DNA of 54,221 nucleotides, the filler included, from Jimgerdemannia flammicorona (lineage: Eukaryota), in assembly GCA_003990765.1 (NCBI GenBank). It is 2 parts of 2 records of this genome, joined end to end, with 100 filler letters (N's around TTAATTAATTAA, not from the genome) between each part and the next. Parts side by side here need not be neighbours in the genome. Positions count along the whole stretch, not along the records: positions 1 to 27,064 come from RBNJ01000666.1; 1 more part is not named here. One strand, written 5' to 3'. This document shows, piece after piece, positions 70-50,086 of the stretch. The notes below the pieces were generated by a model. The model saw only the letters and a program-made list of their open reading frames with translations, was not told where the DNA came from and did no database searches. The translations under genes were made by a program, and so were the position numbers. How positions within the stretch are numbered: the first letter of the stretch is position 1; each line of letters opens with the position of its first letter.

Positions 70-536
70 TGTGATAGTATAGCCAGATTTGGAAGAAGGA
101 AATAGGGAACAGACACTTGATTGCACCCAGTCCCAAAGTAGTATAGCCACATAGTTAGTAGTCCTCAATTCCGCCATTTGCTAAATATTTCACAAAGTGC
201 GAGATCGAGCTTCTCAATTTAGTATAGCATTTCACAACTGGCGAAATATTTCACAAAGTGTTAAATGACTCATAACTTAGCCACATAACCCAGTAACCAT
301 CTCATAGCTAGCAAACTTATATAAATAACCCAGTATCTTTGAGTGAATAAACCTCAGATTGAAATAGTTCAAAGCAAAGAGATAGCAAAGGAACTAGTAA
401 GCCTGCAGGCAGATATACTTCAAACTCACCCACCCTCCCCTGCAACTTCAAGAGACTCTATAAGAGTCAGAACAGTCAAGTTTTCAAGATATAGAAATCC
501 GACATACTTTCAAGAGTAAGCATCTGCTACATTACA
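70..536 (+). repeat. 5' LTR of element 1
   Basis: TG...CA ends (TGTGATAG...ATTACA), direct repeat of 5109-5534, TATA-like TATATAAATA at ~318-327, and internal direct repeat AAATATTTCACAAAGTG at 183 and 244. Confidence 0.95.
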
Positions 537-539
537 ACT

Positions 540-556
540 TGGTACCCATTGACTGG
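540..556 (+). promoter_or_regulatory. Primer binding site of element 1 (tRNA not assignable)
   Basis: TGGTACCCATTGACTGG starts 3 nt after the LTR end. TGG is complementary to the tRNA CCA end. Confidence 0.7.
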
Positions 557-650
557 TAATTCAAGATGAATTCCTCGCTTTCAAGCTGAACAATAAACAA
601 GCACCACTACCCGAACAACCTTACAAACTGAGCCCCAATACCCAGACAAG

Positions 651-3437
651 ATGGATATGAGATCACCAGTATTCTATAGATATACCTCAGATGAATCAAT
701 CATCACCTTCATTGACAATTTTGAGCAGTATGCCACTGTAAGAACCCTGACAGCAGCACAGCAAGTAGCCCTCATGCCCTTCAGCCTATGAGGTCCTGCC
801 AGAGCAGCATTCACAGCTGCAACCCATACAGGAAATGATACTGATGCTATACTGACAGCACAGAAGACCTGGCTCTGAAATTCATATTATATAGTTGAGA
901 TCAAGCAAGCCCTGAAGGATCAGCTCAATACAACAAACCAAGGAATGAGTGAGGATCCAAACACATTCTATACCAGAATTCAATATCAGATAATCCTTGC
1001 AGATTATGCTGCTGCTATCCGAGACCAAGTAGCTGAAGCAACCTTCATGAAAGGAGTCCATCCAGAAATAGCCATGGCCATCCACTCATCACCAGTGATT
1101 CTGGATCTGCCACCGAAGGTCACCTATACTCAGCAATACTGGATAGCCAGACATCCACAAGACCATACAATGGAAAAGGTTACAGGAGTCAGAATTGAGG
1201 CACCTAAGTCAACCAGTGTGATCTCCACCACAATGATCAATCGAAACACACCTCAGCCCAAAGCTACAGAGCAGCAAAAGAACAGTGACCCTATGGAGGA
1301 ACTTGCCAAAAGGTTTGCCAAAATGACTGCCCACCTGGGAGATATGGTAAAGAAAATTCAAAGAAGAGACTGCCACTCTGTTCAGAAGTTTGATGCCACC
1401 TCAGACAAGAAGAAAGGTACCTGCTACAGCTGTGGAGAAGAAGGCCACTACTCCTATGAATGCATGAGTGAAACTAAGTGCAAGGCTCAACCAAGCAATG
1501 TCACACAAAACAAGAAGCAGGCCAATACAATCACCTTTGAAGAAATCGGAGAATCCAATGAAGAGGAATGGAAGGCCTATCCTGCTCAGACCATCCTCAT
1601 TGGCAATCAATGGCTTCACAAAGCCAAGGCAGTAATCAATCTCAATGCTCAGAAGATGCAGATCACCTACCAGGGACAGAAGATATGAATTCCCATCAAT
1701 GTCAACAAAGGAGTCCTGTCTGACATAGAGGAAGAAGAGAGCAAGCAAGAGGAAGCTTATATGGTGACTACTCCAAAGAAGAAGAAAGTTGGATAGATAA
1801 GTAAAGAAGAATAGTACAAGAAGATCACAGAAGGTTATGCCCCACAAGGAGTCTGTACTCATGGGATCAAGATGTACTGTATGGAGTATATCAATGATTG
1901 CTACCAGTGTACTATCGGAATCAAGAAGATCCACCAGGAAAGAAGGCAGAAAGCTCTTGAAAAACAGATCAGGGAAGAAGAGAAGGAGGAAGATGAGGAA
2001 CCACCAGCCCTCCTAGAGAATAGTGATAATGAAGAAGAAATCAAGGTCAAGATTCAAAAGATTCACCCTGATGCAGTCTTGCCAGAATACAAGTCAGAAA
2101 ATGCAGCCAGAATGGATATCGCTACAGTAGAAGAGACTATACTGGAACCCCAGACAACCACCCTACTTGCAACTGGACTGGAGATGACCATCCCAAAGGA
2201 TCATATTGGGATTCTCAAGACAAGAAGCAGCCTGGCCAGAAGCAAAATTACTATCGAAGGAGGAGTCATCGATTTAGACTAGCCTGGAGAATTTGCCCCA
2301 AGACTCTATGTTGACTACAGAAAGCTCAACATGGTTACCAAAAAGGATCACCAACCACTGCCTCTCATCAATGACATCCTCATAATACTAGGAGATGAAG
2401 CACAGTACTATAGCACTTTGAACTTATACTCAGGATTCTACCAAATTGGACTCACAGACATAGCAAGTGAAAAGTCAGCTTTCATCACCCCAGATAGAAC
2501 CTACATCTACCTATGAATGCCATTTGGAATGTACAATGCACCAGCAAGTTTCTAGCAAATGATGAACAAAATCTTCCACTATGATATGGGAAGATGGATG
2601 ATGGTCTATGTTGATGATATAATCATCTACAGCCAGACACCAGAAGAACACCTGCAGCATATCTGGTAGATAATGGAAAGACTGAGAAAGCATGGCCTAT
2701 ACATCAAGCCCAAAAAATGCAAATTTGCAGAAATTGAGATCTCCTATCTTGGCCACATCATCAACTGAGAAGGAACACACACGGACCCCCTCAAGATACA
2801 AGCAGTAGTAGCATACCCAAGACCCACCACTGTTACAGAAGCCCAAGCCTTCATGGGACTTGCCTCCTACTATCACAGAGTTATTAGAGGATTTTCTAAT
2901 ATTGTGGGACCAATCTACAAACTTAACAAGAAGGATACCAAGTTCCAGTGGACTGGCAGACAACAAAAAGCATTCAATGAACTCAAGGTCAGACTGACCC
3001 AGGCACCCATCTTCAGAAGACCTTACTGGACTCAAGAATTCATCCTACAGACTGATGCAAGTGCACAAGGACTAGGAGCAGTCCTAGCTCAAAAGAAAGA
3101 CAAAGTGGAGTATATCATTGCATACCTCAGCCATGGAACCTGAGGAGCTGAAAAAGAATATGAATCCTACAAATTGGAATGTCTTGCAGTTATCTGAGCC
3201 ATAGAAAAGTTCCACTACTACTTGGCTGGGAGACACTTCACCATCCAAATAGACCACTCAGCTCTCACCTGGCTACTGACAACTGGATAACCCAAAGGGA
3301 TCTATGCCAGATGGATAATGAAGTTGCAACCTTATGATGTAACCATTGTACACCACTCTGGAAGAACCAATGCCAATGCAGATGCCCTCTCACAGATATC
3401 CCAAACTACCTCCAACCAACAAATCAACAATGAATAA
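651..3437 (+). pseudogene. gag-pol: gag-pol (Gag, CCHC knuckle, partial protease, Cys/His module, partial dUTPase, RT, RNase H) in one frame with in-frame stops
   Basis: CYSCGEEGHYSYEC knuckle; ILIGNQWL protease C-terminus; RLYVDYRKLN, MPFG and YVDDI RT motifs; LQTDAS and NANADALS RNase H motifs. All lie in the same frame. Confidence 0.9.
2040..2292 (+). pseudogene. dut: dUTPase domain of element 1 (motifs 1-3; C-terminus deleted)
   Basis: KIHPDAVLPEYKSENAARMDI...TGLEMTIP...KTRSSLA...GGVID. Confidence 0.9.
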
Positions 3438-4620
3438 GGAGCTCTACTATGGAATCATCACATACCTGGGACAGCAAAAGATACCCCAACATCTGGAAGA
3501 ATGGACACAAATGATTATCAACAGAACATAGAAATAATTCAAAACTGATGGAGAAACACTGAAGAAAGGAAAACTACTAGTCATACCAGAATACAAGAAG
3601 GAGCAAGCGATGAAATCAGTACACAAACTTGACCATCTAGGAGGAACAAATATATATGACAAGGCAAGAAGAACAATATAGTGGCCAGGGATGGAGGAAG
3701 ATATCAGAAAATTCATCAAGACCTGCAACAAATGTCAGAAACAGAAACAAGACCAACAAAATCAAGCCCCAGGATCAGCACACATAGAACCAGTACCATT
3801 TGACATTGTAATGGATGTAATTGGCCCTCTACTCTTGACTTTGACTGGCAACCGATACATCATCATCATCATAGACCTTTTTACAAAATGGATAGAAGCA
3901 GGACTTCTTATGGAAGCAAATACACAGTCAATCGCCAATTTCTTTCACAAAGAAATCATCTGTCAGTTCAAGACCCCAACACAAGTAACTACAGATAGAG
4001 AAACAGAATTTGTGAACCAGTTCTTTGAAGTTCTCTACAAGAAGTACAAGATCCAGCATATTCAGACCACAGTATATCACCCTCAAGGAAATGGACAAGT
4101 AGAAAGGACCAACAAAACCCTCAAGAATGTTATTGCCAAGATCTGCGATAACTATGAGAACTGGAATCACTATCTGCCAATAGCATTATCTACTCTTCAG
4201 GATATCTGATCACAAAGTACCCACTTTACCACTCGAGAAATACTGTTTGGAGAAGAATGTTCTCAGGGAACCCTATCATCCAATGGAGATGCTGTATGGA
4301 AACATGTGGACTTGGAAATACAGAGACTACACCAAATCAGGAAGATGGCTGAGGATTACATAACCAAGGTGCAGACACTACAATGGAGGAATGTGGAAAA
4401 GACCTATAAACTCTTGGAGATTATCAAGATAAGAGACAAAGTCCTAGTGTATCGGAATATGGTAGAAGCTTCATGGTCATGAAAACTTGAGCCCAAGTGG
4501 GAAGGGCCTTATCTGGTGCAAGATATAAAAGGGACCACCTTTTGGCTACGAAAACCCTTAGGCACAATAATCCCCACCAATATTCACCGAAACTGACTCA
4601 AGAAATATCATGGCCAGTAA
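3430..4620 (+). pseudogene. Integrase of element 1, in its own reading frame
   Basis: HHCC zinc domain (H..DHLG...CNKC), MDVIGP, TDRETEF, HPQGNGQVERTN and WEGPY motifs. ATG at 3430 overlaps the RNase H stop at 3435-3437. Confidence 0.9.
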
Positions 4621-5100
4621 CAAAAGTACTATAATAGCACTCAAGATCACTAGTGCTGCCCAAAGAGCCATTGAGAGACAACGGTGCACCACCAAGCCTC
4701 CGACCATAGAGGAGTCTTATGACAGTATCCAAAGCATTATACAGACTCATCTCTCTTGGATCTCACACTTCAAGGCCTATCAGCATCAAAACGAATTCCA
4801 AGAGTACTTCAAACTTGGCCAAGTACTCAACCAAGACCCAGAAATGACTAAAGAAAATTGGATTGCAGAATGCCACCTCTCCTATTCCCAGATCACCATT
4901 GCTAAGAGAATCTACAAGCTATTCTGAGAGGATGAACCAGCACTAGCCCACCTGCGAGAAGTGACTCCCTCAGACTTCGATCAAGTTAGGCAATACCATT
5001 GGGAAATAGTAATGCAACAAATCGCACAATACAAGACCATATAGACCATTGAAGCTTAGGAGTTTGAATAGATACTTCAGGGATGAGATTATCTATTCAG
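4610..5100 (+). pseudogene. Extra 3' ORF3 of element 1, unknown function
   Basis: ATG at 4610 overlaps the integrase stop. The ORF reads on through TGA/TAG stops likely derived from deamination and aligns with ORF3 at 48469. Confidence 0.7.
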
Positions 5101-5108
5101 GAGGAAGT

Positions 5109-5534
5109 TGTGATGGTATAGCCAGATTTGGAAGAAGAAAATAGAGAACAGACACTTGATCGCACCCAGTCCCAAAGTAGTATAGCTACATAGTTAGCAT
5201 CCTTGATTCTGCTATTTGCTAAATATTTCACAAAGTGCAAGATCGAGCTTCTTGATTTAGTATAGCATTTTGCAACTGGTGAAATATTTCACAAAGTGTT
5301 AAATGACTCATAACTTAGCCACAAAACCCAGTATCTTCAAGTGAATAAACCTCAGATTGAAATAGTTCAAAGCAAAGAGATAGCAAAGGAACTAGTAAAC
5401 CTGCAGGCAGATACACTTTGAACTCACCCACCCTCCCCTGCAACTTCAAGAGACTCTGCGAGAGTTAGAACAGTCAAGTTTTCAAGATACAGAAATCTGA
5501 CATACTTTCAAGAGTAAGCATCCACTACGTTATA
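5109..5534 (+). repeat. 3' LTR of element 1
   Basis: Direct repeat of 70-536 with transition differences and a 40-bp deletion. The terminal CA has become TA. Confidence 0.95.
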
Positions 5535-8500
5535 CTATATAATATAAGAGTGAGGCCTGACCCCCTACCCAACTCCCTCATAGAACTCACTTCTAACTCC
5601 TTCTCTACAGAACTCATTTACTCCCCCAATTATCTAAATCCTCCACTTATTCTTTATATAGATCTACTCTGGTATAAACCCCCTCTGGAGCTCTATCCAG
5701 CCTATCACTCATTCAATAATTCCACTAGTAACTACTCCCATCTTATCACATCTCCTAATCATCCTCAAAGATAAACAGCTAATGTCCAGAAAGACTGATC
5801 TATATCATAAGGGCCCAATCTACAGAAAGCTACTTGTTATCAACCTTCTCTATGAGATATAACTAAAGGGCACCCTACTACTCCATCCACTCTATCTAAT
5901 TACTATATCTCTAGCTAGCCCTCAATAGTTAGTCAGAAGTCTGATAGTACCTAATACTCTCTTAGTCAATATTCTGAAGTCTGTATTACTCTACTCTTCT
6001 TTCCAATCTTGTCAGCTCTCAGGCCACAGGTCTCCACTCTGCTCTTACTGATACTCTATACTATCTTTTAGCCAAAAGTCAATCACTGGAGAACTCTTCA
6101 ACAGAAGACAATTCCAATATCATATCCTTAGTCTCCAGGCTATCTCTCACTTATATCTATATTAGCAGATTTCAATCTGATGAGCTCTATTTACCACCTC
6201 CTATTAGAAGTCCTTATACTATATTTGATGACTTCTCTCTTATATTATAAAGAATAGTAAGTCACTAGAGATTCTCCTAGAGGACAATTATACCTTCTAG
6301 ATAATCTGTATATGAGGTATCCAGCTTTAGTCCCTCAGCTCTCTGGTCTATTTTAACCACTATACTCTCAAATAATACTAATACTTCATAAAGTCAACTA
6401 GGCTAAGTTTCCCCCAACCCACTGATAGTATCAATATATCTCAGCCTATCTGACTATACTACTCAGCCTAAATCTGAGATCTAGTCAACTTCAGAAGCCT
6501 CTTTACTATCTATGTAGAGAAGTCTAAGTGATATTTCAAATACTATAACTTAGACAACTAGTATATATTTATTACTATAATCCTCTTTACTAATAATATA
6601 CTGCAGCCACCTCAGTCCAGGAAAGCATTCTCTCACTCTATCAGCTTCCACTCTTACTATACTCTGGACAATATGAGCTATATACTGAGAATTAAATTCT
6701 CAGATATCAGACCACCTTTTCTGTTGGAACAATTGTTTCAATCATACCTCCTCTCACTATCTCACTACTAAGCACCAATGTCTCATACTTGTATTAGTTG
6801 AATTTGGCTCCAAAGTACTTCTCATACTACTCCATTACTCTCTTCAGTATAGTACTGCATTCTCTACATAGTCCAGCCCAACTACTATATCATTTGCAAA
6901 GACCCCCAACTTCCAATTTATCTCTAGCACTATTAACCCCCCTACTCTGTATTTTATTCAGTCCAGCAAGGGTTCCAAAGAGAGGACATAAAGGATAGAT
7001 GACAGTGGGTCACTCTGTGGCACCCTTCTATCCAAAGAGAAAGATATCTCCTAGTGGCTATTGACTGATATATATAGCTGCCCTACTTCCCTCCAATATA
7101 CTATCTAAGAAATACCAAAAGTCTAAAGAGATGCTAATATATTTCAGCACTCTATTCAACCCTACCCTCTGCACTCTGTTATATACCTTCTTCTGGTTGA
7201 GAAAAACCAGTCATTTATCTATCCTAGCTACTCTGGTCTCTTCAATAATGCCATAGACCCAGACAGTTCTGTCTCAAATTAAATAGCCTCCAATAAAGCT
7301 CTGCTGCTCCTCACTTAGTACTCTCTGAACCATACCTTGTAGTCATACTATAATGACCTTTATGACCAGCTTTCAATCTATTAATTGAATATTAGTTCTT
7401 TCACTTCTCTCTTCTCTATTTATCCTTAAACAGCAGAGCCATCAGTCTTAGACACTGGCCTCCTAGCCATACTCCAGAATCAATAATCTCATTATACATT
7501 AGCTATAGTTCCTCTAAGATTACCTCTACTTCTGCCATTTGTTTCCAAAAGTCCCAGAGTAGTCTATTCTCTCCCAGAGCTACTATAAGACTGATCTATA
7601 CCAAGACCTTGAGAATCATCTATCTTGGATCAGATTCCTCAGCTCTGCCAACTCCTCTACTAAGACTGTCCTCCAGATAGTACTTAATTGTTTGTGTATT
7701 CTTACCTCCCTTCTTCTTACTCTACAATGACCCCCTACCTCTCACTCAGCTGGTCCAAGATAGTTTAAGTCTCTACCATTATCTCTCTCTCCTCATCCAA
7801 TACTCTATTCCAGTGCTGATATACTCTTCTCATCTAAAGAAGCCTCAACAGAAATCTTTTCAGTCTCTCTTCTTTCTTCAGATCCTACCACTATAGTCTG
7901 ACTATACTTATATACTCTCCTCAGCTTAAAATATATATTGCAGCTACTCTATCTCTAATCAGATATGCTGAATCCTTCAATTCTCTACTCTCTCAGTATC
8001 CTGCAGATCAGTCAATCCCTTCAAGAGCTTATCCAACCTCTATGAGACCCATTATATCCTCTCTCTCTTCTAAGCACTCTTCATTCTCTCTGTCTTCTTT
8101 CAGAAATGCTGAACATCAGACTTCAGACTCTGTTATCAGTCACTAATAGCAAGACCTTTCTCTCTCTAAGTGAGCACCTTGGGCCCAATATCTGCTACCC
8201 AAGTCTCTATTGAAGATTTGAAAGAAAAAAGCAACAGTAAAAATTATAGTAATCTTGATCTATATCTAACCAAGATCATCTCTAGGAAAATAGTCTACCC
8301 AGCTAAAAAAAAGAAGAGACCAGTAGAAAGGTTATCTAGAAAAATAGATAAAGAAGAATAGGTCAAAATACCTCTCAGCTCTCTCTCACTCTTTGTATCT
8401 AAAACAAAAGAACTACTAATATAGATTAATAAAATTGAATAAAAACAAAAGTGTAGTATCTCAAAGCTCAAAAATAAGTATATTCTAAGAACTGTGCCCA

Positions 8501-16868: not shown

Positions 16869-17605
16869 TCAATGTTTTTACCATTATGTCAATCTACACT
16901 AGGGAGGCATAACTATACTACATTTTGTATAATATCAACTATGCTATGCTCATGTGATATCAATCTTCATGATAAAACACCAATAACCCCATATCACTGC
17001 ATCACCCCAAAATCCTAGGAAAGAAACCTCAAATAAATGAATAATTGTTCTGTATTTGGGTGGAAACACATGGTATAAAAGACTGGCCCAACCACTATGT
17101 ATATATATGTAGGGTGAGGTGGGTGGTAATGAAATGCATATGAATGTATGGAAGCACAAAAGCATAAGTGTAAAGTGCATATGAAGTAATGTTGGGTGAA
17201 TGGTAGAATTACATATAGAAGTAATGTGCATACTACGCTAGTACCAAAAAAGGAGACTAGGCCTGATTTAGAAATGCCTTAGACAAACAATGGCATTGAA
17301 ACATTTTGGGTGCTATATGCCCAAGACCTTCCTGCATTTATTAACCTGTGGTCTCGAGCGAACCCCCTCATTCAATGTTTTTGCTGTAATGTCGATCTAT
17401 GCTAGGGAGGTATAACTATACTACATTTTGCATAATATCAACTATGCTACACTTATGTGATGTCAATCTTTGTGATAAAACACCAATAACCCCATGTCAC
17501 CAAAATGACCATGCATCACTCTGAAATCCTAGGAAAGAAACCTCAAATAAATGAACGATTGTTCTGTATTTGGGTAGAAACATATGGTATAAAAGACTGG
17601 CCCAA
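16869..17605 (-). repeat. Ngaro 3' split direct repeats B2 (16869-17091), A2 (17127-17372) and B1 (17372-17605)
   Basis: B1 and B2 align (TCAATGTTTTT...AAAAGACTGGCCCAA). A2 aligns with 22318-22563. Confidence 0.93.
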
Positions 17606-17786
17606 ATGTTATATATAAAATGTGTAGAATGATGATGTGTAGCAGGGTGAGTTGGCAGTGCCAAAAGAAAGAACTCAGCTCAAATAAAGTAAAAAGGGGG
17701 GTTATGGATGTGGAAATGTGAGTAGAGTAGAAGATAGAAAGGTGCCGAAGGCTTAATAGAAAGGCCATGCTCAATGTCGATGATAT

Positions 17787-18152
17787 GGCTGATGTCGCGA
17801 GCCACATGATTAAAACCGAGGGCAGGTATTGCAAATCATGTGAAAGCCAAGAAGCTAATTTAATGAGCCCAGTGATTGAGGGATAGAACTGGTGTCGCGA
17901 GTTGTATGAGGGTCCAAGTAGGCTGGTGTTGTGAGCTGCGCAATAACAAAAAGAAGGAGGGCTGGTGTCACAAGCCACGCAATGTCAGAAAAGGTTGGTA
18001 TCATGAACTATGTGGTGGCAAGAGGCTGAGGTGGGTGGATTAAAGACTAGTGTTGTGAGCTGCATGGTGATATAAGGCCGATAAGAAGAGATAAAGGCTG
18101 GTGTTGTATGCTGCACAGGACCTGGAATAAGCTGGTGTCGTGGGCTATACGG
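17787..18152. repeat. Array of about ten 23-bp repeats (inferred consensus GGCTGGTGTCGCGAGCCGCGCGR) with unique spacers
   Basis: Copies start at 17787, 17821, 17853 (degenerate), 17887, 17921, 17960, 17993, 18045, 18096 and 18130. Confidence 0.8.
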
Positions 18153-18259
18153 TAGAAAAAGAGGAATGGGAAAATTGTTAACTGCACATAATATGAGTAG
18201 CAGAACAAGTATTACAAGTTAATGAAGCCCAAAGGTGGAGAATGCGAGAAATAGGTATG

Positions 18260-19200
18260 TGAATATAGCCTTTAAATGCCACACTCTCCCACTGACCTAA
18301 CATCTGAATCTTGTAATCAGATAAGCCAGCCACAGTGGCATTGGATGTTGTGCCAATCCAAAAACTATGCTCGGCATAAAGAAATGGATTCAGACTAATC
18401 CATGGAAGTAATACACAAAGACGACTAACGAGATAGGCCCAAGAGAATGATCAATTCATAGAATGCTAGAACAGAGGGGTGTCGGGTGGGGCTGGGTGTA
18501 CCAGGTAAAGAAGGTGAAGTAAGGATACAATGCATGGCGTGGCAGGATCTGTTTTGGTGATAAAAAGTGATACACTCTGGCAAAATGAGTCTGTTTTAGA
18601 GGCCGGCAGGGTGAGTATAATATGGGTGGGGTTGGCAATGCTAGGTTGAAAGACCACAGAGCCGCAGGACAGCTGGGAAATGGGATCAAAAGACCCATCC
18701 CACATAAATTTGCCGGAGCAAAGAAAACTGACATATGCAAGTGACATTGTGGTCGCAAGGTGCAGATCATCATAATCAGATAGCCAAAGCAGACTGATAA
18801 GACTGCGAAGAATACTGAGCATGATAGGAAGCCGAGGTTGAGTTGGGCATATGCCTAGCCACAACTTCATACCACGCATCACTTGGAGAAGTTGGTGAAG
18901 ACCAATGAATGGATTGGCAAAGCTGGAGTCGATGTGTAAAGAATGAACAGCCGAGAGGTAATGTTTGATTGTGGATGGTTGAAGCTGTCGCAAGGCCAAG
19001 CTACAGACCCACTGCATTAGCACCAGTTTGGACATGGGCAAAGGCCCACCGGAGGCATGATTACCACCATAGAGATTGCAGAATTGGAGGAAGCTGTGTT
19101 GTCCTGAAGAGTATGAGTGGCACATTGATTTTGCCAGTCTAAACTACAAAAAGAAGGCAACAATGGGTGGAAGTATGGAATGCATATAATACCAATCATG
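18260..19200 (-). pseudogene. Tyrosine recombinase of Ngaro J
   Basis: STIKHYLSAV, AYVSFLCSGKF (catalytic R>C), LPASKTD, EHSFWIGTT (HSFRIG) and IQMLGQWESVAFKGYI (GRWxS...Y). Confidence 0.9.
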
Positions 19201-20750
19201 GTCAGGAGCATCTGAGCATAAGGGGCAAGACAATAGAAATGAGAAAGATCAGCATGGGATAAAGCATCAGCAATACCATTATCAGATGTTGAGATGAATA
19301 TGTCATGAAGTTGAAAAGCGTGATGTGCCATTTGAAAATAGAGCTGGCAGAGAAGTTCCAGCAGAAGAGGGTTGCATGAAGAGCCCAAGTTGATAATAGC
19401 AATGACTGCCTAATTATCAGAATGAAGCAATATATGGTGAAAACGCCATTGAGTGCCCCAGGTAGCAGTGGCAGTGACCATGGCATAAAGTTCCTTAAAC
19501 TGAATATTGTGTGAGGCTATATCGAGAGGCCAGGGAGTGGAAAACCATTTACTATTGAAATGTGCACCAAAGCCTTAGATCCTGCTAGCATCCATCCATA
19601 ATTGTACATCAGGCTCGTGGAACCATGCCACCAGATGTATAATGGAAATACTATTCCAGTAGGATAGGAATTCGAGCCACCAATGAATGTTGGTGTAGAA
19701 TTCCTCATTTAGTGAGATATGGAATGAGGCATTGCTAGAAAGAAGGTTGATAAACTACTGCAGGAATGGGTGGCCCAGCAGAATGATTTTACAGGCAAAT
19801 GCCAAGGAACCAATAAGCGACTACAGTTGAGAGTGTGTATATAACGTGTGCGATAGCCACTGCTGAAGAGTGGCAAGCAATGTATCAAGCTTGCTGAGAG
19901 GCAGGCGAGCTTCCATAGCTATTGTATCCAATTCGATGCCCAGAAAGATGAGTGATATTGTTGGGTCTTCGACCTTGTGCTCTTGAATTGATCAGCTGAG
20001 ATGATGACAGATGGAAAGAAGTAAACATATGTCAGAGAGGGCAAGCAGCCAGAATGGTGGTGAAACAAGAAGAAAATCATCAATGTAATGGATAAGCAAG
20101 CATATGTCATGATGGTGGGTGATCTATGTGAGAAGTTCCATGAAAAGGTTGAAAAGAAATGGTGACAAGGATGCACCAAAAGGAGCAAACCGATTGAAAT
20201 AAAACTGCCCTGACCACTTGAAACCCAGAAACTCCCAATCCATAGGATGGATGAGAATATGATGATATATATTGGTGAGGTCGACCTTCAATAGAAGACA
20301 TCTCTGGCCAAAATGACAAACTAAGTCCAAAGCCTTGTCAAACTTAATGTAAGTGAGCCAGAAGGTGTCAGTATCTATGCCAGCATTTACTGAATCACTA
20401 TGATGGGGCCAAGAAAGGTTGTAAATACGATGCCATGCACTATTAGAATTCTTCTTTGTAATGGTGCTGAGAGGAGATGAGTGAAAGCATTCGAATGGAG
20501 GGGATGAGAATAGACTACAAATTCTACTGGCAGTGACTTCTCGCTCAATGTCAGATGTGATCGCTTCTGGGTGGTTGAGAGTGGAGCGATGATTGTAGGA
20601 CAGCAGGCACTGACAAGGCCCATCAAAGCCGAGAAGAGTGCCTTGAGTAATAGTGGTGATGGCAGCCTGAGCTACCTGCAGGTCAGGATATAACTGGAGC
20701 TCATGCACCCATGCGACAGGGTAAAGAGCAGAAGAAGGAAGAGGAAAACG
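19200..20750 (-). pseudogene. RT/RNase H of Ngaro J
   Basis: KVDLTNIYHHILIHPMDW, APFGASLSPFLF, HYIDDF, MDAS, KELYAMV and NGIADALS motifs. Confidence 0.92.
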
Positions 20751-20869
20751 ACATAGAATGTCTTGAGCAGCTTCATTAAGAGGGGTGGTAAATGGGTGAT
20801 GGAGTAGGGTATTTGGAGCGGCCAGGGGTATGTGTAAAGAATAAATGGAGGTGAGTTCCTAGGGGTGAG

Positions 20870-22310
20870 ACAATAGATTGTAGGAGCATCGATACCATGG
20901 ATGATCACCATTGCAGTGAGAACAAGAATGCACATAAGGGCATCCTTTTCTGTTGCACCCAGGATCCTTCATGGGTGATTCATTGAATAGAATGCCATTG
21001 TATGCTCAACAAGTAGACCATTGAGAGGCATTCCCAGAAGATGGAGCAGAGGAGCCATCAGTGAGATGTAGCCCCTGTTGTATATTGCAAGACTTGAAGG
21101 ACTTAAGTGGATTAGATGTAGAGGTCAGAGTTCGTGGACGTTGATGTAGACTAAGGATCATAAAGAGGTCAGGGTCGCATTGGGCCCAGTGCTCATACCA
21201 TATCAAAGAAATACCATTGTTTGCGATCTCCGCCAGTCATTTTGTGTAAAAGGAGACATGATAATTGAGAAGCACGGACCAATATGATGATGTTGATAGT
21301 AAAATAAAATCCACGACATATGAAAAGAATGGAGTAGGATTGGTGAGGCCCGGGTATGTATCATGAAGAATGCTGAAATATGTAAATGGGGTGGCGAGGA
21401 AAGCAGAGATGTCCAGAAGATCTTTGATAAGAGATGGCAGCTTTCGAAGAATGATCTGAGCACCCGATTCATCAAACGTTTCGATGAATTGAGCATCAGG
21501 AAGACCATCGATAGAAACAACATTTCACTCCAAGAAATGGCCAAGTGATATAGTGGTGAACGAATTGTTGATGACTGTGGCCAATAGCCATTGATTAACA
21601 TGGGCATATTTTAAAGAGAGATTGACACCTCAGACAATGGTATGGGCAGAGATAACAGAAGGAGGTATAGAGATAGACTCACCCTGGGGATTACCGGCAG
21701 GGCCATGAATACCAGTGGACCAAACTGAAGGGATAGTCAGTAAGGGCTGAGATGAGGATGGGGATGCAAGAACTGCTGAAAGAGAGGCAGTAGCATGATC
21801 GATAAAGACTTAATTGATGATGGGAGACACATCCTGACCAGAAACAGCAGGAACTACACTAGTCAGTGCCACCAAAGATACGATGTCGGGGTGAGAGCAT
21901 AAAAGCTGAAAAAGTTCATCAAACTGATGGTCTTGCACAGATACATGCTCTTGGAGCTGAGCAATGCTGGCTTCAATGGAATCATCAGAGGCCAGTGTGC
22001 TGAAAAAAGCTGGTCTGGCTGCCGTAGTGCTAGCGGGAGCCTTGGATGTGGCATGCACTGATAGATACATGATTCGGTGGGGTGCAGAAGTAGAGTGATC
22101 AGGGAGGGTGGTGAGATAATCCATGAGGATAGCAATATCGGGGTTCTTGCTATCAGATTCCAGGTTGTCTTGCAGAAAGCGGAGCACATGCTCAATGAAA
22201 TTAACATCCAAGTGGAAAGAGCAGGTGGCAGAGCCCAGGTTGTGTTGGCCCTTCGACATATGGGAAGGGTTGTATCGACACAAAAGGCAGGAATTTGCAG
22301 AGAGGACCAT
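20870..22310 (-). pseudogene. gag-like ORF1 of Ngaro J with C-terminal zinc finger
   Basis: ATG at 22310 directly after A1, and CNRKGCPYVHSCSHCNGDHPWYRC at ~20885-20960. Confidence 0.8.
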
Positions 22311-22317
22311 GGGAATA

Positions 22318-22563
22318 TAATGAAATGCATATGAATATATGGAAGTGCAAAAGCATAAGTGTAAAGCACATATGAAGTAATGTTGGGTAAATAGTAGAAT
22401 TACATATAGAAGTAATGTACATACCGCGCTAGTACCAAAAAAGGAGACTACATCTGATTTAGAAATGCCTTAGACAAACAATAGTATTGAAACATTTTGG
22501 GTACTATATGCCCAAGACCTTCCTGCATTCATTGATCTGTGGTCTCAAGTGAGCCCTCTCATT
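22318..22563 (-). repeat. Ngaro 5' repeat A1
   Basis: Direct repeat of 17127-17372. Confidence 0.95.
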
Positions 22564-27064: not shown

Positions 27065-27164
27065 NNNNNNNNNNNNNNNNNNNNNNNNNNNNNNNNNNNN
27101 NNNNNNNNTTAATTAATTAANNNNNNNNNNNNNNNNNNNNNNNNNNNNNNNNNNNNNNNNNNNN
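27065..27164. other. Assembly gap spacer (44 N + TTAATTAATTAA + 44 N)
   Basis: Exactly 100 bp. The 12-mer gives stop codons in all six frames. Confidence 0.97.
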
Positions 27165-35602: not shown

Positions 35603-36044
35603 GACAGCTTTCACCGGTAACATTTGGGTGACACAAGACTCAGATGACACTTTTTACAATGTTTTTGGTATCTGATGAATAACAACATAGATAGCAAAAA
35701 TTGAACTGGTGAGCATACTGGCCAGGGGGGTGATGGCACCTTTGGCTGGCAGCAGGTGGAGAGGAGGGGAGATGGTTTGGGGATGCCGGGGGCCTCAATG
35801 GCTAGCTGGGGCCCAGGTGGTGGAGGGAGGGGTGGTCTGCAGCAGAGAGGAGGGGAGAGGTCAACCTTTGCTGGGACTTCTTTTACTCAAACCATTCAGA
35901 GTGAGCTAAGCCAAACAGATATCACTTCATGACAAGTAACACATTTTCAAGTTTTCACTTTGGTTATACTGGTGTATAAGGTGCAGCAAAAGTCTGGCAA
36001 TAGTTTACAACAAGTTTCATCGAAATCCATCAAGTTTTTGTGAT

Positions 36045-40800: not shown

Positions 40801-40978
40801 GGAGGGGGTGGACCCTGAACAGCAGTGGTGGCACCTGGACTTCTCAGGGTAGGAGGGAAGGAGTTGAAGGGCTATTCTCTGGTTAAGGTGATGGAATGGG
40901 CCAGATCCAGCCCTCTCGAGTGGTGGCCAGTTGGTTGGCAGACAGCTGGTATTGGTGAGATGTGGGAATGGGTTAGAA

Positions 40979-41747
40979 TGTAATAGAATGAATGAGCAAA
41001 CAGATGGGATGCAATGAGATGAACGATCATGTAACCTGGCGATGACATCATCATACGATTGAGTATGGCATATAAATAACGAATGGACGAATGATGTGAA
41101 ATGATGCAGAAAACAATATCCAGCTTATCCCTGACAACCAGTGCTGCAGCAACAGTTGCCACAGCTGCTGATCATTGCCTAGTAATTGAGGTCCTGATTA
41201 CAAAGATATTCTTTACCAAAAACTACCTGATAAAGGTTGCGATCACAAACCTCATTATAGTTACCAAATTAGTCACCCATACTTAGTCAGAAATCACAGA
41301 CCAACTTGTATAAATACCCTCCAGTTTTCCATCTGAAATAAAGCAGTTTTAGTTCAGTCCTTGATACAAGAATCAAGTCCTCCCACCCCACACACATTCC
41401 CCTGAGTCTTAGTAATGACATCTAAGTGACTCTAGTGTTTCTGACTAAACTCCAGAAGCCTAGCTAATATAAGCCAGAACTGAGACCAGTATATAAATCC
41501 CCAAAGACTTAAGTAAACCCATTGAACCTGAATTCCAAGGCGAATTCAGTCTGTGCACACCAAAGAACAAGACCCTCGAAATAGGGCATAAGAGAAGGAC
41601 CTTTGAAACAGAAGGCACTGCCGCTACAACTACTTTAAGTGAGCGCTTCCTCAAACTGAAGGCTTCTTGGTACACATTGTGTACTGAGTCCCTAAGTAAT
41701 AGTCTACTTCCCTAATTATCCTAAGGATAGAAGTGAGAGTTATTACA
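40979..41747 (+). repeat. 5' LTR of copy L
   Basis: TGTAAT...ATTACA inverted termini, TATAAATA at ~41309 and AATAAA at ~41337. Confidence 0.97.
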
Positions 41748-41849
41748 ACTTGGTAGCAACAGTTTACCAGCCAAGAAGGCACCAAAGAACACACTCTTGA
41801 AGTTGGAACAAGACCAACCTTGGACAGGAGTAACCCCCAGAAATAACTG

Positions 41850-44800
41850 TGGATTCTCAAACCAGAGCCAGAGAAGCCCTTGCCATTAGGACTAGGTGGT
41901 ACCAGGAAACCACAGACCCAAGGACTCACTAGCTTATAATTGACCAGGCTTACAAGGATCTATACCAGGCCTTTAGGACATACCACCCAGGACTTAGGAA
42001 TATTGTTAGCTGCCATAGGTTCTATGAACTCCTCCGAGGACACATTGGAACCACTAGGACCCCAGAATCTACTGCTGCAGCCACCCAAGATTTTTTAGAT
42101 TATATTATACCCCCTGCTGCAAGAGAAGCAGCTGCCAAGTGGATTGCCTCTGACAGGTATCATCATACACCAACCAAGACCTCCCTCTACTACAGGCTAG
42201 GTGTATACTATACCTCTGCCATAACTAGGTATGAGAATGAGCAAGCAGGCCATCCATCCCCTACTGCTGAACAAGGAGTAGGCCCATCAACCTAGCCAGA
42301 GACTGATATCCTCTTTGAAGGACCTAGTCAGTACAAGGATGCACTATCTCATCAGAGAAGAGAGTCAGACGAAGACTCTACAGGTTACCAGTCTGATGAT
42401 AGCCAATGAGGAACAGCAGGCCTAGGAATTTACCAAGGAATCACAGGTCAAGAAGATCAGACCTCAGAACCAACCCAGCCACCTATACAGAGGTTCAGTT
42501 TACCCTCTCTCATAGGACTCTTTGACTTAATATCCAGGAATCAAGTAACTCCAAGTCATATAGTACCACAACCCCACCAAGTGAAACAATCTTCAGGAGA
42601 ATCTACCCCAACAGGCCCACCACCAATAGTCAGCACAATGGTAGATGTCAACATTGCAGCACTGACCACCCAGCTAGCAGCACTAGCAGGGATAGTAGGA
42701 CAGATTGCTGAACAGAACAAACCAACCAAGACTTTGCAAATCTCAACATTCAGTGGAAAAAACAGTGACATTGAAAACTTCATCAATGCAGTTGATACAG
42801 GCTACCGAGCAAACCAATGGAATGACAACTGAGTACCTATAGGAATGCTCACCAATAACCAGAACAGCACCCTTCAACAGCTGTTTGCCACATCAGCAGT
42901 ACAAGTAGAAACAGTAGCCACATTCTTCACTGGAACAGTAGCCGAATTCTGGCGAACCTTGGAACAACACCCAGTAACCTGGGAAGCCTGCCCTCAAGTT
43001 AATAGACAAGTACCTGGCAACAATAGACCAGGTTGGGATGACTATGAAGCAGGCCCAGGACTCAAGGCCTTACTACCGACCAAATTCCAAAATGCAGCCT
43101 ACATATAAGAAACATAGAACAAACTGTCCCAGATGAAGTTCTACAAATGGCGAAGAGGATCTAGAGATCTTTGCCACCAGAATAGATATCTATCTCAAAA
43201 CTGTGGGACTTACCTATCAGGAAAACAATTTGGCCATCAATGGTACCAGAGCTAACCATCTCTTTGCAGCCCTACCAGACTGGCTCATCCAGAAGATCAA
43301 GGAACAAGGTCTTCCCTAAGGATGTCCCCACTACTCATGGTGCTTTGCCCAAGTACAAAGAAGAGCCTGCGAAATCCTTACTGCACAAGCTCTATGGAAC
43401 CAAGAACACAAGAAGGATAACCAAGATAGGAGAAACCCCACCAGGAGAAATGATCAAAGATATGATCAACAGAATGATCAAAGGAACCAGCGAAACCCCA
43501 GGGGATCCAGACCTCCCACTGAGGATGAAAAGAGGCAGCTCCATGAAAAGGGATTGTGCTTCATCTGTAAGAAGGCAGGACACATCTCATTCAGATGCTC
43601 TGAGAAGAAGAATAGAGCAGGCAAACCTGGTAACCAGAACATTACTGTCATTGGAGAAGACCCAGGAAAGAAGAACCCCAAGAATATCATCAAAGTACAG
43701 AAGATATGGTACAAGGCTACTATCCCCACTAAGGCCCACCCAACTGATGCTGGATATGACCTCTACAGCAGCCAAGACCTCACCATCCCACCAAGTACTA
43801 ATGCTATAGTATGAACAGGAATTGCAATGCAAGCCCCCAGAGGTACATACATCTATCTTGCTGAGTGAAGCAGCCTAGCCAAAGAGTTCAACATTGGGCT
43901 AGGAGGAGGAGTAGTTGACCAAGGATTTACTGGTGAAATCTGTGTCATCTTGCGAAATTTTGGAGACACATCATTTGAAGTCAAAGCAGGCTAAAGAATT
44001 GCCCAAGCAATCATTAAAGAAATCCATCAAGATCTCACCATTGAAGAAGTCCCTGAACTCTCCCAGACAGATCATGGCAAGAAAGGGTTTGGATCTATCA
44101 ACAAACCTCCCAGTCAAAAGGTCACTACTATGAAGGAAGATGATGAAAACTGGTACAAGGGAATTGCAGATGGTTATGCACCATGTGGACGATACCCTCA
44201 TTCTATTCGAATGTACTACATGGAACATGTTTGTGAATGCCATGCATGTCTCTCCAAAGTTTTCAAAATTCAATCTGAGAAGTGCCAAGCTCAACAGACT
44301 GAGGAACCCAAACAAGACAACCCTCCTTGTGAAGGATGGGGAGAAACTGACTTCGAGGAGACTGACAGCAATTGGGACAACAATGAGGATGAAGAGCTCA
44401 ATACCATCAAGAAGGAGGACAGTTGCATCAAGTTCACAGGCCAAGTCCACAGACAAAATGTCAATGTCTTGCTTGATAGTAATGCTACTGGAAACTACAT
44501 CAGCACCAAGACTGCCAAGAGGATTGGAGCCCGAAGCAGACCAACTACTGAGAAAAGAAGTGTTACCTTTGGTGATGGAAAGACTGCACCATTGACCAAG
44601 ATCTGTGAAGACCTTTTGCTCAAGATTGGCAAATATCAAGAAAAGTTGGACTTCAGCATTGTAGACCTCCCAGGACAAGACATTATCTTAGGAAAAGCCT
44701 AGATGACCCAGTACAACCCAGATATCAACTGGAGAACCAATGAGGTTAACCTGACCCATGAAGGCAGAAAAATCACCCTGATACCCCAGGAAGATACCAA

Positions 44801-47800
44801 CCACTAAGAAATCAAAATCATCTCTACCATTCAAATGAAGAGACTCTCTCGAAAAAAGGGAATCACCTACTTTATCTGTATAGTACAAGAAGTCACTGAA
44901 GCTACAAGTAGTCCAATTCCAACAGAAGCTCAAGAACTGTTTGAAGAATTCCAAGATGTATTCCAAGATCCTCAAGAACTTCCACCCAAGTGCTAAATCC
45001 AACATGGAATTGATCTTATTCCAGGATCTGAACCCCCATATAAGAGTATCTATCAACTGGCTCAACCTGAGCTCAAGACCCTCAAGGATAAATTGACCAA
45101 ACTACTGGTCCAAGGATACATTGAACCCAGCCACTCTCCATTTGGAGCCCCCATTCTATTTGTCAAGAAGAAGGATGGCTCTCTGCGAATGTGTATTGAC
45201 TACAGAGCCCTCAACAAGATCACTATCAAGAACTGGTATGCCTTGCCCAGGATTGATGAGTTACTACACCAAATCTTCAAGGCCAAGACCTTTTCTCTAC
45301 TGGATTTGTGAAATAGCTACCACCAGATTCTCATTGATGAGAAGGACATTGAGAAGACAGCTTTCCAAATATGGTTTGGACACTACCAGTTCCGAGTCAT
45401 GCCTTTTGGATTTGCCAATGCACCAGCAACATTCCAGTATCTGATGAATGACATCTTTGGACCACTCCTCAACATCTGTATCCTCATGTATATTGATAAT
45501 ATACTAATCTGCAGCGAGACAGTAGAGCTATACTACACCCATCTCAGACAAGTACTGACCCTCCTGCGAGAACACCAGCTCTATGCCAAGATGAGCAAAT
45601 GCAAGTTCTACCAAGACCAGATTGAATACCCAGGGCACATCATCTTTGCTGAAGGTATCAAAATGGACCCCCGAAAGATATCAGCCCTTAAGGATATCCC
45701 TATCCCTATTACCCTCAAGCTACTCCAGTGCTTTCTGGATATTGCCATTTATTACTGAAGGTTTATCCAAGGATACTCTGCTATTGCAGCTCTATTAACC
45801 AGTCTGGCCTGCAAAGAAGTAAACATCAAAGCTGAATGGACCCCCAAATACACCCTAGCTATGGACCACCTCAAGAGACTCCTTACCAAGGCCCCAGTGC
45901 TAATTGCACCTGACCCTACCAGACCATTCACTCTGATCACAGATGCCTCTGATATTGCTATTGGAGCAGTACTCAGTCAAGAAGACCATCCAGTGGCCTA
46001 CCTCTCCCAAAAGCTCAAGCCAGCTGAGACCCGGTATACTACCCATGAGAAGGAACTCCTGACTATTATCACTGCACTCCAGGAATAGCGCCACTTCCTC
46101 CTAGGACAGCCATTTGTAGCCTATACTGATCACCATGCACTGTGGTATATTCACACACAGCCTATGCTGACCCACAGATAAGCCCACTGGATGGAAATCA
46201 TTGCCAACTTTGATATGGAAATCAAGCATATCCCAGGCAAACCATCCATATGGCTGACGGTTTCTCCAGATACATAGAAGATGAACTTGTCTTCATGGTC
46301 AAAGTAATTGGAGACCTTACCCAAATGATCAAGGATGGCTACCAGCAAGACAGCCCTCTGATGAATTTCCTTCAATTCTGCCAAGACCCAGAGGCCAAGG
46401 TTCCAGAACCCATGAGGCAAATGGCCCAGAGATTCACCTACTATGATGGACTTATCTACAGGGACTATGACAGAGTGGTTATACCCAACAATGATACTCT
46501 GTGACTCAAAATCATGCAGGAACTCCATGATACTCCTGCAGCAGGACACTTTGGTTTTGAAAAGACCTACAACCTCCTCTCAAGAGAGTTCTACTGGCCA
46601 AAGATGACTAAGGATATCAGAGACTTTGTGGCCTCATGCGAGATGTGCCAAAGGTTCAAATGTGGTAACAAGTTACCAGCAGGACTCCTGCAACCCTTGC
46701 CTATCCCGAGTCACAATTGGGACCAGATTGCAATGGACTTCATTGTCCAACTCCCCAAGACCAAGGCAGGATGGGATGCCATCATGGTATTTGTAGACCA
46801 CCTAAGTAAATAAGCCTATTTTGTACCCACCAAGACTACCGCTACAGCACCAGAGATTGCTGAAATTTTCCTCAATCAAGTATTCAGGCTACATGGCATG
46901 CCTAGCACTATTGTATCTGACTGAGACACCAAGTTCACAAGCAACTTCTAGAAGGTATTTTTCTCCCTCCATGGAACCAAGCTGAAGTTCTCTACTACCT
47001 ACCACCCTCAGACTGATGGTCAAACCGAGCGAACAAACAGGACTCTCAAATAGATGCTTAGCATCTTCTGCTGTTACAAGCAAAATGATTGAGACAAGTA
47101 CCTAGTTTATGCTGAGTTTGCCTACAACAACAGTCAGCAAACCTCCACAAAGAAGACTCCATTCTTCCTGAACCATGGTCAACCCCCAAGGACCCCAAGT
47201 ACTACTGTGAAATCAGCTGTCCCAGTAGCCCAAGATCTGACCGAGACCATTTCTGATCTTACCCGAATGACAAGAAATGCTCTCATAGAAGTACAAGACT
47301 ACCAGACCAAGTATGCAAACTTGAAGTAAAGAGAAGCCTCCTACAATATTGGTGACAAGGTCATGCTTAGAACAGACCACCTCCACCCTGATACCCTGGC
47401 ACAACAACCAGCCAAGAAACTCCATGCTAGAAGAATTGGACCATACAAGATCATGGAAAAAATCAGCAAAGTGAACTACAAGTTACAACTTCCCCACAAT
47501 ATCCAAGTACACTCAGTATTCCATATCAGCCAATTGGTGGACTACCATGAGAACCCATTCTCCAAGCATACAGTTCCACCACCACCCCCAATTAGGATCA
47601 ATGATCATGAGAAATTCGAAATTGAGAAAGTACTTGACCACAAGGTCTGCAAATATCCCAAAACAGTCAAGCGCTTTTTCCTGATCAAGTGGAAGGGTTA
47701 CCCCACCCATGATGCCACCTGGGAAAAAGAAGAAGCCCTGAAGAATGCATGCCAAGCCCTCCAGGACTATATGGAAACACTCACCCCCCAGCAAAGGAAG

Positions 47801-47815: not shown

Positions 47816-48396
47816 GCATGGGAGCACACAGCAAGCAGAAGGGTACTACATATTTTTAACTGGAAACATATAATACCAAACATTGCAGAGAAAAAAGGAA
47901 CACTATGGATAACCAACAAGAAGATACCTGAGCAAAAGAACAATCTAGTACAGTATAGCAAAATGCATTTGAACAACTCCATTTTATACCATCTGTATCA
48001 TCTCTGCTGGATGATGACAGATGCTTCATATAGAACTTAGGAAAGCTGACAATATTGAAACCAGTCTAAGTCCATCCACGTGACAGATATTGTTACTAAT
48101 AATTGCCTCAGATTATAAGAAAGTATATTTCCAAGAGGTTCGAACCTCCAGCCATGACAATGGGAGCTCTCGCCCTAGACAAGGATGGCTAGTCCTCACA
48201 AATGCGTCAACCAGACAAAAAAAAAAATGGACCAAGACCTGTTAACCCTGTATAACCACAATTATAAGTAATGATATCTTTGAAATCAGGATTTTCCTCA
48301 TGCAACCAGTACATGCCCTGCTTACAGCAACAGGTCATGTATTTTGCCAGAAAATGTGATCAAAGGAAGGTCACATCAGATGGGTGAATAAGTACA

Positions 48397-48468
48397 TATA
48401 AATACCCAAGGTAAGAATACCCTGCAACTCTCATCTCCCTCTTCTCACAAAGAAAAGACAAGACAAAA
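48397..48468 (+). promoter_or_regulatory. Putative internal promoter for ORF3
   Basis: TATAAATA at 48397, a CT-rich tract at ~48428-48447, and AAAATGTCT start context. Confidence 0.45.
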
Positions 48469-49296
48469 ATGTCTGCCACCTACCACCAAACTACCCACCA
48501 TAGCCAGCCCCTCCTAAGCCAGGTTAACCACCTCTTTGGACACATCCAGGTTGCTATCCAAGGAAGGAACTGCTGCTCAGAGGCCCTTAACCTCTCCAGC
48601 CAGGACCTAGGACACTATGTCCTCAACTGCTGTAAAGTCATCGAAAGAGCCTACCTTGCCACCAGCCACCTAGAGATCTGGCATAAATACAAGATTGGCC
48701 ATCAACTCCTCCAATGGGCAAATGACCTGCCCATGGACCAAGTCTCTGACTGGACTCACCTAGACAGGCATGAGCAAAGACTTGCCAAGAAGGTCCATCA
48801 AATCATGTGCCATGCACCCTTTGCAATCCCCAACTTCAACTATGTCCAACTGAAGGACTTCCAGAACCTCTCTTTCTTCAAGATTGATGAACTAGAGATC
48901 AAGGTAGCCCAAGAAGCCAACTCCTGGATCACTCCCAAATCTACTAACTGCGAACCCTACTGGAGCCCCCTCCTGAATGACAACCCTAACCAATGACTCC
49001 AAGGCCTCTCTGACCTCTTTAAAGGACCACCTATTCGAATGGATATTCCCAGGCATGAAGATCAAGTGCCCTACTTGGATGGCCCCAACCACATCAAATA
49101 GAGAACCCCTACACCAGTACCTATCCAAATGCAAAAACCATTTGCAGACCTCATTGACTTCTCTATCCTAGACAGCAAACCACCAGTAACCACCCCCCCT
49201 GCCCCTAAAGAAGATGGTAACAACCCTGAGAAGGATTCCCCACCTTTCTCTCCCCTGGTTCTCAATTTCTCAATCAACGAGGACATTGATTTTTAA
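48469..49296 (+). pseudogene. Extra 3' ORF3 of copy L, unknown function
   Basis: 175-aa open part (48469-48996). The frame continues through TGA and TAG to TAA at the PPT. Homologous to ORF3 of element 1. Confidence 0.75.
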
Positions 49297-49307
49297 GGGG
49301 GGAAGGA

Positions 49308-50086
49308 TGTAATAGAATGAATGAGCAAACAGATGGGATATGATGAGATGAACGATCATGTGACCTGGCAATGACGTCATCATATGATCAAGCATGGCAT
49401 ATGAATAATGAACAGATGAATGATGCGAAATGACACAGAAAACGATATCCAGCTTATCCCTAACAACTGGCACTGCAGCAACAGTTGCCACAGCTGCTGA
49501 TCATTGCCTAGTAATTGAGGTCCTGATCACAAAGATATTCTTTACCAAAAACCACTTGACAAAGGTCATGATCACAAACCTCATTATAGTTACAAATTAG
49601 TTACCCATACTTAGTCAGAAATTGCGGACCAACTTGTATAAATATCCCCCAGTTTTCCATCTGAAATAAAGCAGTTTTAGTTCAGTCTTTGATATAAGAA
49701 TCAAGTCCCCCCTCCCCACATACATTCCCCTGAGTCTTAGTAATGACATCTAAGTGACTCTAGTGTTTCTGACTAAACTCCAGAAGCCTAGCTAACACAA
49801 GCCAGAACTGAGACTGGTATATAAATCCCCAAAGACTTAAGTAAACCCATTGAACCTGAATTCCAAGGTGAATTCAGTCTGTGCACACCAAAGAACAAGA
49901 CCCTCGAAATAGGGCACAAGAGAAAGACCTTTGAAACAGAAGGCACTGCTGCTACAACTACTTTAAGTGAGCACTTCCTCAAACTGAAGGCTTCTTGGTA
50001 CATATTGTATACTGAGTCCCTAAGTAATAGTCCACTTCCCTAATTATCCTAAGGATAAAAGAGGGGTAGAAGTGAGAGTTATTATA
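49308..50086 (+). repeat. 3' LTR of copy L
   Basis: Direct repeat of 40979-41747. The terminal CA has become TA. Confidence 0.97.

Follow-up and report, generated by a model that had tools for sequence, protein, structure and literature searches.

A shared family of small helical accessory proteins in chromovirus and non-chromovirus Ty3/gypsy elements of Jimgerdemannia flammicorona

Two Ty3/gypsy elements of Jimgerdemannia flammicorona each carry an extra gene behind pol, and we found that the two genes (ORF A and ORF B) are distant homologues. Their products belong to a single family of accessory proteins, soluble, all-alpha and without a name so far, encoded by fungal Ty3/gypsy elements. 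At least four high-copy lineages of this one fungal genome carry the same small extra gene, apparently swapped between them, and sequence comparison indicates that it moved between chromovirus and non-chromovirus lineages. As to function, we propose with a probability of about 40% that the protein regulates transcription of the element that encodes it and is itself made from a separate transcript; it would be nuclear and act on the element's DNA or chromatin.

The window, that is the whole stretch of 54,221 nucleotides analysed here, joins two contigs of a 231-Mb repeat-rich assembly (GCA_003990765.1); positions 1-27064 are the first contig and ORF B lies on the second. The fungal nature of the host is borne out by the fungal Zn2Cys6 domain, matched by 88 of 150 scored candidates here and by none in 14 control genomes. 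Element 1 (70-5534) has the order gag-CCHC, Cys/His motif, dUTPase, RT, RNase H, integrase, ORF A, polypurine tract (PPT) and LTR (Table 1). Copy L (40979-50086), identified as a chromovirus by the Pfam Chromo match at the end of pol, has the order gag, dUTPase, Cys/His motif, protease, RT, RNase H, integrase, chromodomain, a 650-bp spacer and ORF B. CpG was strongly depleted in both elements (o/e 0.14 and 0.13). An inverted second copy of the L family (27430-34716, minus strand, ~88% identical) stands beside the assembly gap at 27065-27164, and other sequence interrupts it just before the place of ORF B. A further LTR element at 17127-22563 (minus strand) showed a weak RT match, and the accessory-ORF profiles had no match there. 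L itself is inserted in a G-rich repeat (35000-40978 and 50090-54221) with a GC skew of ~0.5 and long minus-strand ORFs without Pfam match.

Table 1. Features of element 1 and chromovirus copy L in the window.
Feature	Position	Strand	Evidence or remark
Element 1 5' LTR	70..536	+	Direct repeat with 5109-5534; TSD CTAT at 66-69
Element 1 Cys/His motif (1815-1949), then dUTPase	1815..2279	+	Pfam dUTPase, E 2.3e-10
Element 1 pol (RT, RNase H, integrase), decayed, without chromodomain	2331..4620	+	Pfam RT_RNaseH_2 and rve; three-frame reading
Element 1 TATA-like box, within integrase coding sequence, 80 bp before ORF A	4524..4530	+	In 23/24 copies
Accessory ORF A, 153 codons, three internal stops in window copy	4610..5071	+	Start and stop kept in 24/24 copies
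Element 1 polypurine tract	5097..5108	+	Sequence
Element 1 3' LTR	5109..5534	+	Direct repeat; TSD CTAT at 5535-5538
L 5' LTR	40979..41747	+	TSD TAGAA at 40974-40978
L dUTPase, then Cys/His motif	43689..44288	+	tblastn; partial Pfam dUTPase
L chromodomain, end of pol	47615..47776	+	Pfam Chromo, E 7.6e-13
L non-coding segment common with non-chromovirus family D (80-81%), there upstream of PPT	47957..48209	+	blastn of D loci L085 and L086 against window, E <= 1e-57
L TATA box in non-coding spacer, ~70 bp before ORF B	48397..48403	+	In at least 25/29 chromo-selected copies
Accessory ORF B, 275 codons, two internal stops in window copy	48469..49296	+	Stop overlaps PPT
L polypurine tract	49295..49307	+	Sequence
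L 3' LTR	49308..50086	+	TSD TAGAA at 50087-50091

A first-pass annotation of this DNA had described an extra sense ORF between pol and the PPT in both elements, and both were found there in decayed form. It had carried ORF A on to 5100, about 30 bases too far: a TAG stands at 5069-5071 in all 24 integrase-selected copies, all of which also keep the ATG start. The window copy of ORF A is interrupted by stops at codons 106, 145 and 150. Reading of the window, Pfam and blastn bore out the 4-bp TSD and missing chromodomain of element 1, and the 5-bp TSD and differing LTR of L. Pfam Chromo was not matched among the element 1 ORFs scanned, where ORF A stands directly 3' of integrase, and the LTRs of the two elements gave no blastn match to each other. 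The description of the two lineages as unrelated was overstated, with RT-RNase H 36-38% identical and both dUTPase and a Cys/His motif common to both.

This Cys/His motif, which has no name and lies beside dUTPase in element 1, in L (44154-44288) and in another family, C (locus L088), is a second exchanged module. It was 44% identical between element 1 and L over 45 aa (E 6e-8), gave no match in the Pfam scan of the window, and its order relative to dUTPase in element 1 is the reverse of that in L.

The protein motifs quoted earlier from ORF A and ORF B are present and can be aligned with one gap, and the pairwise test against shuffled controls was borderline: with BLOSUM62 the score was 41, with 15/80 columns identical, and 360 of 10,000 shuffles reached it. 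Profiles of A copies and B copies compared without bridging families gave an hhalign E of 0.051. The homology became significant through added bridging families and not from the pair alone. The flanks of genome matches exposed two more high-copy families, C and D, which were ~30-40% identical to B, the ORF identity between families ranging over 12-42%. With a B+C+D profile, 37 of 40 A rows scored above the best of 2,000 shuffles (window A 20.7 bits, shuffle maximum 11.3), and hhalign of B+C+D against A gave 92.7% and E 4.3e-7. Each ORF had at least 150 genome matches (150/150 scored); the first-look candidates, 1,765 and 5,893 for the two ORFs, are not copy numbers.

Through a search of 1.84 billion protein representatives, we found 27 proteins at E <= 0.001. 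One of them (P0015) is an ankyrin repeat protein and was dropped as a false positive; the remaining 26 representative candidates had no match in curated Pfam, and nine of ten looked up were unnamed or "hypothetical" environmental proteins. Three fragments (P0013, P0014 and P0025) were excluded from the alignments. A profile of 19 distant environmental relatives, holding no row from families A to D, scored window A at 68.7 bits and B at 50.6 bits (shuffle maxima 9.7 and 3.4). Because these 19 were recruited with a mixed profile holding A and B-D rows, the cleaner evidence of homology is that for seven of them both profiles, A-only and BCD-only, give at least 20 bits. With P0035 as sole query, window A was recovered from the genome (E 2.9e-6). 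In the family pattern a long helix closes with aromatic-x-aliphatic-Gly-x-x-Leu; Ala-x-basic-aliphatic-aromatic-x-x-Phe follows, and then a series of short helices. The tie of the ORF family to Ty3 elements is drawn from this genome and one metagenome contig (L093); among the viral contigs and metagenomes searched, no locus was confirmed for the distant environmental relatives and one B-like locus was found.

Exchange between lineages was indicated by a conflict of trees. In the RT-RNase H tree family C joins element 1 (55-62% identity; support 100/99), far from L (34-40%), whereas in the ORF tree C joins B (38-42% identity; support 94/95) and not A (13%). An ORF clade of A and C was rejected (p-AU 0.00076); the trees hold 7 RT rows and 21 ORF rows, and the long A branch may account for part of the conflict. 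Independent of the trees, family D, whose integrase ends without a chromodomain, has 257 bp in common with the L spacer at 81% (Table 1), and this match stands just before the PPT of D. The tree conflict and the DNA common to L and D together lead us to regard the ORF as an exchanged module, which agrees with the earlier suggestion of a protein kept by or exchanged between lineages. These lineages swap modules, and the exchange may have run in either direction. The gene is a portable 3' module, and template switching close to the 3' end would be the simplest route of its transfer.

Within or beside the segment common with family D, the spacer before ORF B also holds a tRNA T-arm/B-box-like palindrome with an A run (48137-48227), partly echoed in L093. 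ARAGORN and Rfam found no tRNA or Rfam RNA in this spacer, and the palindrome is possibly a SINE-like or Pol III relic. By eye, we also noticed in the D locus L086 a second degenerate dUTPase-like stretch after the first, between protease and RT, and a Cys-rich motif unlike that of element 1, C and L.

The first-pass annotation placed this family between pol and the PPT, which holds for A and B and fails for C and D, where the ORF lies inside the LTR. Eleven C and eleven D copies have a common 5' boundary 210-240 bp before the ATG, most with unrelated flanks, and a PPT precedes the boundary in 3/11 copies of each family. The ORF-bearing LTR of family C was found behind integrase, before gag and as tandem LTRs. 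Since the main TATA and AATAAA follow the ORF in C and D, the ORF is placed in U3. The C/D layout could have arisen from the B layout if the PPT moved to a position 5' of the gene. Many C and D LTRs (flanks of L061-L084) start right after a TATA-like target sequence, and several lie in or beside copies of the element 1 family. MMTV sag and HIV nef, which are retroviral membrane-associated proteins, are likewise encoded by ORFs in or overlapping U3; C and D resemble them in having a coding ORF inside the LTR, and homology is neither expected nor found.

For retention and selection we used copy sets chosen without regard to the ORF, 30 loci by integrase similarity for A and 30 by chromodomain for B. 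In the integrase-chosen set 24/30 loci cover ORF A, and the ORF was present in all 23 that reach the 3' LTR; the core of ORF B was present in 29/30 chromo-selected loci. The pN/pS of ORF A on transversions was 0.31 (0.16-0.59) in integrase-selected copies; integrase gave 0.16, the LTR 0.78-1.09 and shifted frames 0.87-1.61. For ORF B the values within the genome were 0.67 (0.26-2.26) for the core and 0.42 (0.20-1.08) for the tail. The metagenome homologue L093 has the same ORF-PPT-LTR layout and ~66% identity to B, and against it the pN/pS of ORF B was 0.41 (range 0.37-0.44 over 30 copies, uncorrected). Purifying selection, for which a test on transversions had been proposed, was detected for A within the genome and for B only across samples, against L093. 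When copies were instead selected by similarity of the ORF itself, the estimates (A 0.22, B 0.40, C 0.59, D 0.32) were biased low, and those for A and B were replaced; those for C and D come from such copies only and keep this bias.

In the four families 141 of 143 stops can be derived by one or more C>T/G>A changes from a sense codon present in another copy, indicating decay after insertion and confirming that stops can be explained as deaminated codons. The alignment column with a stop in A and Cys in B, which had been put down to deamination, is a CpG-decay hotspot in both families and holds a sense codon in 18/24 A copies.

It is very improbable that A and B are unrelated or that the ORFs are neutral passengers. 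Such a reading could draw on the marginal pairwise score and the within-genome value for the B core, but it is opposed by the selection on A, and on B across samples, and by the same helix pattern in the models of A and B, and it is largely refuted by the bridging profiles with their shuffled and reversed controls.

AlphaFold2 modelled a naturally open A copy as a compact all-alpha domain (pLDDT 89.8, pTM 0.80) and a B copy likewise (pLDDT 76.2). The last six helices of the two models match with an offset of 8 residues, as in the sequence alignment; the models have alignment rows in common and are not independent. With the homology established by profiles, the predicted all-alpha structure upholds the earlier proposal of a conserved helical accessory protein. 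The product of ORF B consists of a helical core of ~150 aa and an acidic Pro-rich tail. The net charge of the last 50 residues is -13 in B, -14 in C and -10 in D, and the tail of L093 is also acidic, whereas the acidic tail is missing in A (net -3) and in 8 of 16 other relatives. Conserved basic positions occur in helix 92-105, and the N-terminus of B, C and L093 is basic (net +5 over residues 1-40). A Pro-hydrophobic-hydrophobic-Leu-Asn-Phe motif is kept after the divergent acidic tail in B (~49260-49280), C, P0010, P0011 and L093, and could be a candidate host-binding motif.

The position of A and B between pol and the 3' LTR is where an env-like membrane protein might be expected, but this reading is hardly tenable and already refuted by the missing membrane segment. 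The usual threshold of a Kyte-Doolittle 19-mer is 1.6, and no hydrophobic membrane stretch was found in any of 21 proteins (maxima 0.15-1.47; 0.15 for A and 0.49 for B); the models are also compact and soluble. The former judgement that the ORF is not env-like agrees with this, on hydropathy only.

Neither Pfam, with 33 family members scanned, nor PHROGs, PDB sequences or Foldseek against PDB and BFVD gave a significant match to the family; the proposed check for an already described domain by Pfam and Foldseek (PDB, BFVD) therefore revealed none. The best VIA-align scores, Z 6.1 (a photosystem I subunit) and 4.0, were taken as background and are not proof of a new fold. Searching two members against phages with tblastn gave nothing. 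The DNA-binding domains of ParB, SopB, VirB and KorB recurred in one register for both models over 83-88 residues, with Z 3.2-4.6 and rmsd 4.3-5.5, inside the tool's background for helical proteins; SopB gave Z 4.6, rmsd 4.8 and 86 aligned residues with one model and Z 3.7, rmsd 4.9 and 88 with the other, again at background level. The helix order of the ParB/SopB/KorB/VirB helix-turn-helix can be aligned with both models, whereas the family has no ParB N-terminal domain. In a sequence test with SopB 151-275, a single SopB sequence, 1,627 and 267 of 2,000 shuffles scored as high with two profiles, and hhalign gave E 0.38. Atlas neighbours included DUF3102 (0.92 at rank 30) and HTH_3, and Atlas feature hits included a closterovirus coat protein and a phage translation repressor, all of them leads only. 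DUF3102 (PF11300) was matched by 0/33 members in the Pfam scan and not found in the genome, and DUF1016_N was not among the Pfam matches of family members. A ParB-like helix-turn-helix in the modelled protein is no more than a sub-threshold hint.

In A, B, C and L093 the ATG is preceded by TATAAA, which D lacks in canonical form. The box before A lies in integrase codons, so its conservation may be protein-driven. A common target motif was not found: the best 6-mer occurred in 6/8 promoter regions, and 284 of 300 null draws reached at least 6. A GTGAYC sequence, picked by eye, occurs 1-3 times per region in the 240 bp before ORFs B, C and D and in the U3 of L, and 0.1-0.3 times in pol; it is absent before A and in L093. 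In the regulator reading, a TATA promoter of its own probably drives the ORF and yields a short message. The protein would act in the nucleus, on DNA or chromatin of the element itself, as the helical core with a conserved basic helix, and the acidic tail in B, C and D, may suggest. The role could be like that of an element-encoded transactivator or de-silencer, in a host which would methylate and deaminate CpG in repeats.

Unlikely, yet to be considered beside this, is that the protein counters host silencing through host proteins of the RNAi or DNA-methylation machinery and not through DNA. The heavy CpG decay of the elements would supply the motive, and both the fast divergence between families and the short C-terminal motif kept in B, C and relatives fit a host-binding adaptor, as does the contact-rich, fast-evolving character of accessory transposable element proteins described in the portion of PMC13547354 consulted; but the helical core is conserved far past a linear motif, and no match to known suppressor families was found. 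It is rather improbable that the protein acts on element RNA or on the particle, whether in packaging or export, in the control of copy number or in restricting sister elements. A sequence-independent role of this kind would fit exchange between lineages, expression from LTR copies would give a high-dose trans-acting factor, and the N-terminus of B, C and L093 is basic, but the protein resembles neither gag nor nucleocapsid, nor a solved or viral fold, and the EIAV matrix, a weak PDB-sequence hit (E 0.72), was not significant. Integration-targeting domains are normally fused to integrase, and a separate targeting factor is quite improbable here; while C and D copies often stand behind TATA-like flanks and inside other elements, the carriers differ in TSD length and in presence of the chromodomain.

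Returning to the separately transcribed regulator, our analysis suggests that several retrotransposon lineages supply their own regulator. Going further, we might speculate, as an unlikely case, on a "complex retrovirus" layer of fungal Ty3/gypsy elements: a new family of HTH-like transcription regulators that might descend from a ParB/DUF3102-type protein of prokaryotes or phages, that have a promoter of their own, and that have travelled between chromoviruses and non-chromoviruses and on two occasions into U3. If this were true, a solo LTR would by itself hold an intact regulator gene whose product could act in trans on every member of the family. The usual view is that gag and pol suffice for fungal Ty3/gypsy elements. 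A conserved third gene which at least four high-copy lineages keep, which has crossed between chromoviruses and non-chromoviruses and which has moved into the LTR points to a function that repays its retention under CpG silencing. Because the family is small, soluble and confidently modelled, and has naturally open homologues, the role of non-env additional ORFs becomes directly testable.

In the full-text literature, the scope of which excluded subscription journals and Repbase, we found neither this family nor an ORF within the LTR of a fungal retrotransposon described. Sense additional ORFs between pol and the 3' LTR (aORF-3S) of LTR retrotransposons are described in the accessible part of PMC7264820. 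ORFs A and B have the same position and, like aORF-3S, are kept in most copies (23/23 and 29/30 loci) and under selection; some of the plant env-like aORF-3S have a transmembrane segment, whereas the present family has none and no known family match, and lies in U3 in two families. In PMC2864245 (text and Fig. 3 legend) the position of dUTPase differs among fungal Gypsy elements, and an "add. ORF" without known function is shown, which may or may not be the present family, and the portion of PMC3248453 available has no mention of "additional ORF" or dUTPase. In bdelloid rotifers, according to excerpts of PMC5408684, LTR retrotransposons carry ORF3s, one ORF3 type occurs in unrelated lineages, and there are dUTPase-bearing elements. 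Those ORF3s are DEDDy exonucleases, GDSL esterases or env in the excerpts, whereas the present protein matches none of these in Pfam and has no catalytic signature.

For the proposed function, VANC, an anti-silencing protein with a MAIN-like domain in plant VANDAL DNA transposons (PMC13547354, in part), is a possible working analogy of an element factor against silencing, but the MAIN-like domain was found by Pfam in 0/33 members. Tas/Bel1 of foamy viruses, as the passages of PMC517496 considered present it, is a 3' accessory gene with an internal promoter and a C-terminal acidic activation domain whose product binds its own promoters directly. It is a working analogy only, with no sequence or structural likeness, and the acidic tail of B, C, D and L093 is absent in A. 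Additional ORFs and their sharing between lineages are already known; new here is the protein family that occupies this already described position, including its unusual form inside the LTR, together with its controlled link to the chromovirus ORF, the tree conflict, the DNA common to D and L, and the unbiased test of selection.
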